From Escherichia coli (GTDB lineage: Bacteria > Pseudomonadota > Gammaproteobacteria > Enterobacterales > Enterobacteriaceae), in NCBI RefSeq assembly GCF_044324785.1, contig NZ_CP172127.1: a DNA stretch of 64,000 bases; one strand, written 5' to 3'. How positions within the stretch are numbered: position 1 is the stretch's first letter; every line of letters starts with the position of its first letter. This document shows, piece after piece, positions 32,850 to 32,858 of this stretch. The notes below the pieces were generated by a model. The model did not search any database and was not told the origin of the DNA. It saw only the letters and a list, made by a program, of their open reading frames with translations. Made by a program: the position numbers and the translations under genes.

Positions 32850-32858
32850 GGGGGGGGG
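32850..32858. repeat. G9 homopolymeric tract
   Basis: Nine consecutive G on the plus strand (C9 on the yfdF coding strand), about 95 bp upstream of the yfdF start codon. Confidence 0.9.

Follow-up and report, generated by a model that had tools for sequence, protein, structure and literature searches.

Mononucleotide repeats in the non-coding DNA of Escherichia coli were surveyed and applied to strain typing around 2000–2004. In other bacteria, poly-G/C tracts serve phase variation; those of Neisseria porA, opc, and fetA lie in the spacer between the -35 and -10 elements, and the poly-C run of the Bordetella fim genes lies between the BvgA site and the -10 element. The TAAA repeats of N. meningitidis nadA act as a distal upstream repeat modulator, and the poly-A tract of N. 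meningitidis nspA reportedly does the same. Here, a run of nine G located upstream of yfdF (also named icaT and gem1) was characterized in a 64,000-nucleotide (nt) stretch of an E. coli genome (NCBI RefSeq assembly GCF_044324785.1, contig NZ_CP172127.1), which is referred to below as the window. The run is probably (roughly 0.7) a neutral or near-neutral hypermutable mononucleotide microsatellite, a mutational hotspot rather than an on/off switch.

Like the E. coli non-coding microsatellites, the yfdF tract is a long mononucleotide run whose length varies among strains and is inherited within clones, and its instability needs an uninterrupted run. It differs from them in being a G:C run, a type far less common in E. 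coli than A:T runs, in an exceptionally diverse set of alleles in which length changes are combined with T/G interruptions, and in its location upstream of the gene for a Shigella type III-secreted protein. With the Neisseria and Bordetella promoter tracts it shares a poly-G:C run of ~9 bp, a position upstream of a gene that is regulated, was horizontally acquired, and encodes a secreted protein, and slipped-strand change. However, the yfdF tract is located 51 bp upstream of the activator box and outside the core promoter, and its alleles are stable within clones of a mismatch-repair-proficient host.

The run GGGGGGGGG, already reported in an earlier note on this DNA, was confirmed by direct reading of the + strand, and it corresponds to C9 on the yfdF-sense strand. 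It is flanked by CCAA on the left and AGTATCC on the right (+ strand ...CACAATAGCCAA GGGGGGGGG AGTATCCTGG...).

32850..32858, unstranded: G9:C9 homopolymeric tract, the pure-run core of the hypervariable segment, by direct reading.
32849..32858, unstranded: 10-nt hypervariable segment with conserved CCA and AGTATCC borders, AGGGGGGGGG in the window.

The tract was the sole run of G or C of at least 7 nt in the whole window. Under independent bases, 15.8 runs of length 6 and 4.8 runs of length 7–8 were expected, and 3 and 0 were observed, respectively. Runs of at least 9 were expected 0.31 times under independent bases and 0.015 times from the run-length decay of the window itself (a factor of 0.153 per added base). 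Because of the latter value, the tract is a real outlier in a window that is depleted of G/C runs. The sequence TGAGCGCACAATAG (32834-32847, + strand) directly adjoins the tract and echoes the conserved ends of the MxiE activator box described below (TGAGCG...TAG), in the opposite orientation and with a shorter middle; this resemblance may be due to chance.

Variation of the tract was examined in 16 complete genomes, picked down the similarity ranking, and in public metagenome contigs, which were scanned for the conserved flanks with a variable gap and gave 107 contigs. The diversity figures were calculated from an alignment of 114 E. coli genome and metagenome sequences. Since the count of segregating sites in the flanks was inflated by a few poorly aligned sequences, no rate was estimated from it. 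The segment from CCA to AGTATCC occurred as 20 alleles among the 114 sequences, comprising G7–G12, G6–9TG, G5–8TTG, GGGTGGTTTG, GGGAGGTTG, GGGTGGGTG, the window-type A+G9, and A+G7; the comparison of tract lengths across genomes proposed in the earlier note thus returned pure runs of G7 to G12 together with TG- and TTG-terminated series. The haplotype diversity of 10-nt windows over the tract was 0.88, with 19 haplotypes, whereas that of 10-nt windows elsewhere within ±200 nt had a median of 0.11 and a maximum of 0.68. The only insertion/deletion columns present in more than a handful of sequences were those in the tract. The length and the purity of the tract have changed recurrently among E. 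coli lineages, in surroundings that are conserved, the MxiE box included.

When sequences were grouped by identical flanks of 150 nt on both sides, the tract alleles were distributed as follows.

K-12-like flank haplotype (n = 41): G9 in 19, G8 in 11, G10 in 1, G11 in 1, and G6TTG in 9.
Second flank haplotype (n = 15): G10 in 4, G9 in 2, G8TG in 8, and G6TG in 1.
Third flank haplotype (n = 6): G9TG in 2, G8TG in 3, and G7TG in 1.
GGGAGGTTG flank haplotype (n = 8): identical in 8 of 8.
GGGTGGTTTG flank haplotype (n = 8): identical in 7 of 8, the eighth being G7TTG.

Each haplotype with runs of at least 8 G carried 3 to 5 tract alleles. Instability was therefore tied to the uninterrupted run and the interrupted alleles were stable, as is characteristic of a microsatellite; the repeat was also hypermutable and differed in length among close relatives, as in a contingency locus. 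When the identical flanks were extended to ±500 nt, lengths were mostly held in common (11 G9 and 1 G8), and one such haplotype still carried G8TG, G10, and G9. On extended flanking single-nucleotide polymorphisms (SNPs), G8 and G9 were each found on several haplotypes, and G6TTG was found on a single one. Judged from these haplotypes, the length changes are recurrent yet inherited, because G8 and G9 lie on several extended haplotypes and lengths are mostly shared within the ±500-nt flanks. The tract had been proposed as a substrate for slipped-strand mispairing, and the occurrence of different lengths on identical flanks, and of the same length on different extended haplotypes, agrees with this proposal.

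Among 5,426 complete genomes, the exact K-12-type 35-nt flanks enclosed G9 in 917, G8 in 345, and G10 in 149. Assemblies of the same lineage carried the same allele. All four assemblies of the E. coli W lineage (W, KO11FL, LY180) had G8, all three assemblies of ATCC 8739 had G10, and MG1655 had C9 on the sense strand. This stability of alleles within clones appears to argue against fast on/off switching. Segment lengths of 8 to 11 nt were all common in the sample, which was drawn without phylogenetic control. A scan of the GTDB species representatives for the tract flanks gave zero matches.

The complete genome nearest to the window was that of strain N3, with 98.8% identity over 24.8 kb. Strain N3 carries GGGTGGTTTG in the exact 10 nt where the window has AGGGGGGGGG, and the two sequences differ at five positions within these 10 nt versus about a dozen positions in the other 390 nt. 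The alleles can be arranged in a series from interrupted through TTG-ended and TG-ended forms to pure runs, which suggests that the run was purified and lengthened by T-to-G changes at its borders together with ±1 slippage. In such a scheme, border T-to-G changes, produced by dislocation-type misalignment, would convert an interrupted sequence of the GGGTGGTTTG type into a pure run. From about 8 G, the pure run would become unstable in length, and replication slippage would then add or remove single G residues.

The position of the tract was compared with the architecture of the yfdF promoter.

31686..32726, - strand, stop codon included: yfdF (icaT, gem1), AT-rich, 346 amino acids, placed by alignment to the RefSeq K-12 coding sequence.
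32783..32799, - strand: MxiE box TGAGCGTTTTTTGATAG, 17 bp, at -49..-33 and overlapping the -35 element, identical to the S. flexneri yfdF box.
32750..32768, - strand: putative -10 region (TAATAT / TATATT) and transcription start at ~32750, with a 5' untranslated region of ~24 nt, placed from the box position (PMC3299695).

The MxiE box was located 73 nt upstream of the yfdF ATG, was unchanged from the validated S. flexneri box, and showed zero non-singleton polymorphism in the 114-sequence alignment. The yfdF promoter thus has the form of an MxiE-regulated promoter, in which a 17-bp box overlaps the -35 element upstream of the gene. Mutation of the yfdF box abolishes activation (PMC9769918, PMC9241512). 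In canonical MxiE promoters, the box occupies -49..-33, and fragments from -57 to +11 sufficed for regulated activity in 13 of 14 promoters (PMC3299695). A consensus search for MxiE boxes with up to 3 mismatches found nothing in this DNA; the actual box, which has 4 mismatches, was found through a table in the literature. Because of the canonical box position, yfdF transcription would start near 32750, and the tract would lie at about -100 to -108. The tract lies upstream, 51 nt from the MxiE box and 43 nt from the minimal MxiE promoter, so that its earlier placement in the probable promoter region was not supported: the box (32799..32783) overlaps the -35 element, and the tract is outside -57..+11. 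The distance of about 95 bp to yfdF given earlier applies only to the GTG at 32756, which opens the maximal open reading frame (ORF); from the annotated ATG (32726), the tract start is 124 nt upstream.

Compared with the Shigella MxiE/IpgC promoters (PMC3299695, PMC9769918, PMC9241512), the yfdF promoter has an identical box at the same 73 nt from the ATG, whereas the G tract stands outside that architecture. It is absent upstream of the boxes of the yjgL and yccE MxiE promoters in MG1655, and the tract was therefore ruled out as a conserved module of MxiE promoters. In the promoter scan, the tract fell in the spacer of no promoter-like site, and the only pairs seen by hand inspection on the sense strand were hexamers (TTTCCA ... 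TATTGT) with 8/12 matches and a spacer of 20-21 nt at G9. The tract is situated neither in a conserved reading frame, nor in a -35/-10 spacer, nor in an activator-to-core gap, which are the positions of simple-sequence contingency repeats. The tract occupies the distal part of the DNA upstream of yfdF/icaT and marks the GC-content edge of an accessory island that is AT-rich and silenced by H-NS; GC content shifts from ~0.33 to ~0.45 exactly there.

Two promoter-like sites with 10/12 matches overlap the yfdF leader (32750-32779, + strand; 32756-32728, - strand), and the former points from yfdF toward the tract. Sites of this kind typify AT-rich DNA bound by H-NS. In K-12, the yfdF/mlaA region has been listed as a 'promoter island' (PMC3661553).

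Since the tract falls outside both the MxiE box and the core promoter, its variation would be neutral or nearly so for yfdF expression. Several points weigh against this interpretation. Distal repeats modulate some promoters elsewhere, as in nadA and nspA of Neisseria. The 47 nt between box and tract (32800-32846) contained 2 non-singleton polymorphic sites in the 114 sequences, and the 200 nt on the far side (32860-33060) contained ~30; an upstream regulatory element may therefore adjoin the tract within the conserved 47 nt, and a modest effect through H-NS or an upstream site may exist. The reporter constructs from both laboratories that studied the promoter begin at the fadL stop codon, and they include the whole fadL-yfdF spacer with the tract. 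Finally, some of the G8 and G10 assembly calls are artefacts, so that the counts among the 5,426 genomes are approximate; the G8 or G10 given for some K-12 derivatives may be artefactual in the same manner as that of the assembly L133, described below.

A length-dependent regulatory element of yfdF/icaT, acting as a switch or rheostat, is the alternative that best survived, and it is unlikely. Such an element would act heritably, through H-NS nucleation or through the spacing or helical phasing of an upstream site relative to the MxiE-box promoter. The recurrent length polymorphism is compatible with it, as are the location of the tract on the DNA that leads into a regulated promoter silenced by H-NS, upstream of it, the conservation of the block between tract and box, and the coincidence of the tract with the GC shift. 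Against it, the tract at -100..-108 falls outside the interval from the activator site to the -10 element, segments of 8 to 11 nt coexist with no evident preferred length, and clones keep their alleles. Paralogous MxiE promoters function with no tract of this kind, and at yjgL only ~50 bp separate the upstream edge of the MxiE box from the tabA stop codon. In addition, yfdF is silent in E. coli that lacks MxiE and IpgC (PMC9241512). Of the length-variable switch suggested in the earlier note, the variability of length is therefore supported, and a switch function is not supported by the position of the tract.

It is doubtful that the tract is a slipped-strand contingency element serving as a heritable rheostat for the type III secretion substrate IcaT (YfdF), in which single-base changes in length at the margin of the AT-rich block bound by H-NS would alter silencing or the phasing of an upstream site in the conserved 47 bp. 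The nadA and nspA repeats are similar to the yfdF tract in that they lie upstream of the -35 element, where any effect would need the spacing or phasing of upstream sites. They differ in having defined flanking regulator sites and measured differences in expression.

A second alternative is very improbable. In it, the sense-strand C9 would belong to a C-rich, G-poor region for Rho loading (rut-like), or to an H-NS boundary, that limits read-through from fadL, and the polymorphism would be incidental. In its favour, the sense strand is skewed toward C over G from ~32700 to 33100 (+ strand GC skew +0.13 to +0.21), and the fadL hairpin failed the criteria of the terminator scan, which include a T run after the stem. 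However, many lineages carry an interrupted allele in which the sense-strand C run is broken, with no compensation seen, and matches to RNA families were not found. A scan of 31000-35000 against Rfam gave nothing relevant, with one chance microRNA match (E 0.25), and the terminator scan around the tract detected zero terminator-like sites.

Sequencing or assembly artefact at a homopolymer was largely refuted as a full explanation of the length variation, and only a slight chance is left to it. When the assembly L133 (GCA_028598205.1), which belongs to the lineage of the window itself, was compared with 30186-34230 of the window, only four single-base homopolymer insertions/deletions were found (30459, 31064, 31099, and 32850), the last of which makes the tract G8. 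Two of the four are inside mlaA and would cause a frameshift, and mlaA was not called in L133. This is a long-read error pattern that mimics variation in tract length. Several assemblies of K-12 derivatives likewise give G8 or G10, compared with G9 in MG1655. However, the substitution alleles (TG, TTG, and GGGTGGTTTG) are impossible as homopolymer miscalls, the assemblies within a lineage agree (four of W and three of ATCC 8739), and the metagenome tract alleles co-segregate with extended flanking SNP haplotypes. The 4 kb around the tract was 100% identical to one NCBI assembly and one gut-metagenome scaffold, and the allele of the tract region in the window was absent from the complete RefSeq E. 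coli genomes.

A small phase-variable ORF was ruled out: one ORF spans the tract in the window (43 codons from GTG, 32827-32958, + strand), but its frame and length differ from allele to allele, a stop codon falls in or at the tract in the commonest interrupted and TG alleles, and zero ORFs were common to the alleles on either strand.

The probable near-neutral microsatellite is set in the DNA between yfdF and fadL, within an accessory island.

31332..33083, unstranded: yfdF island, between the convergent mlaA and fadL, delimited by comparison with the yfdF-less strain DA61218.
30536..31291, + strand: mlaA, convergent with yfdF, with a terminator hairpin at 31298-31335.
33093..34439, - strand: fadL, the upstream neighbour on the same strand as yfdF, a divergent allele.
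33047..33075, - strand: presumed fadL terminator, closely following the fadL stop codon, an inverted repeat with a perfect 13-bp stem and a 3-nt loop.

In strain DA61218, a single hairpin separates mlaA and fadL. The GC content of the island is 0.29-0.39, and the description of yfdF as a low-GC gene was upheld (0.29-0.39 vs 0.49), as was its accessory nature, since it is absent from B2-type strains (PMC9241512). The yfdF region was covered by at least 80% in 4,274 of the 5,426 genomes, and the sampled genomes with low coverage were annotated with mlaA and fadL only. The tract is inside the island, ~225 bp from the fadL-proximal end. It was rejected as an island or recombination junction, as the island continues for 225 bp past it; the partial match that starts at the tract (H30) represents an IS1 insertion with an adjacent deletion and is not a junction. 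In E. coli 58-3 (L003, 3150-4020), IS1 is located between yfdF and fadL, and the adjacent deletion has taken out the MxiE box and stops within the G tract, where ...ttacc|GGGGGTGAGTATCC is left. Strain 58-3 therefore has a destroyed yfdF promoter.

The start of yfdF was assigned to the ATG at 32726 because of the alignment to the RefSeq K-12 coding sequence and the MxiE box 73 nt upstream, as in S. flexneri 2457T. The exact YfdF protein of the window was on record on 295 contigs, named as an E. coli hypothetical protein. It has an internal duplication of 65 amino acids and, relative to the 415-amino-acid form, a premature stop (31686-31688), past which the reading frame of the 415-amino-acid form runs on to about 31478. 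A direct repeat of 139 nt (32163-32301 and 32358-32496) with 78% identity and 195-nt spacing represents the extra segment of ~65 amino acids that is missing from K-12 YfdF. The form in the window matches the phylogroup D/E type of IcaT (PMC9241512). The protein family search with YfdF gave only a sub-threshold match to DUF7163. In S. flexneri, H-NS silences icaT, MxiE and IpgC activate it through the MxiE box, and the type III apparatus secretes the encoded protein; E. coli shares the conserved box, and supplying MxiE and IpgC there activates yfdF (PMC9769918, PMC9241512).

FadL, annotated in MG1655 as the phage T2 receptor, was identical between the window and K-12 at 349 of 456 aligned positions. 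The differences occurred in blocks, and the termini and most other segments were conserved. Strain N3 carries the common fadL allele; a recombination breakpoint therefore lies near the fadL terminator. The loop of the fadL hairpin (33060-33062) read ATA in the window and E7-1N7 but TAT in K-12 and N3, on stems that did not differ, which looks like hairpin-loop inversion.

The tract is a locus at which homopolymer miscalls are mixed with real polymorphism, which calls for caution in assembly-based variant calling, and it is a potential marker for fine-scale typing. If its length did tune icaT, a stochastic layer would be added to the control of a Shigella type III substrate by MxiE and H-NS, Shigella, enteroinvasive E. 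coli, or other E. coli lineages would differ stochastically in icaT expression, and a slipped-strand contingency promoter would be present in E. coli, where such loci are thought to be rare. As a probable microsatellite, the tract illustrates how, in nature, a G-rich sequence with interruptions may turn into a pure and unstable run in a species that is proficient in mismatch repair and otherwise avoids G/C runs.
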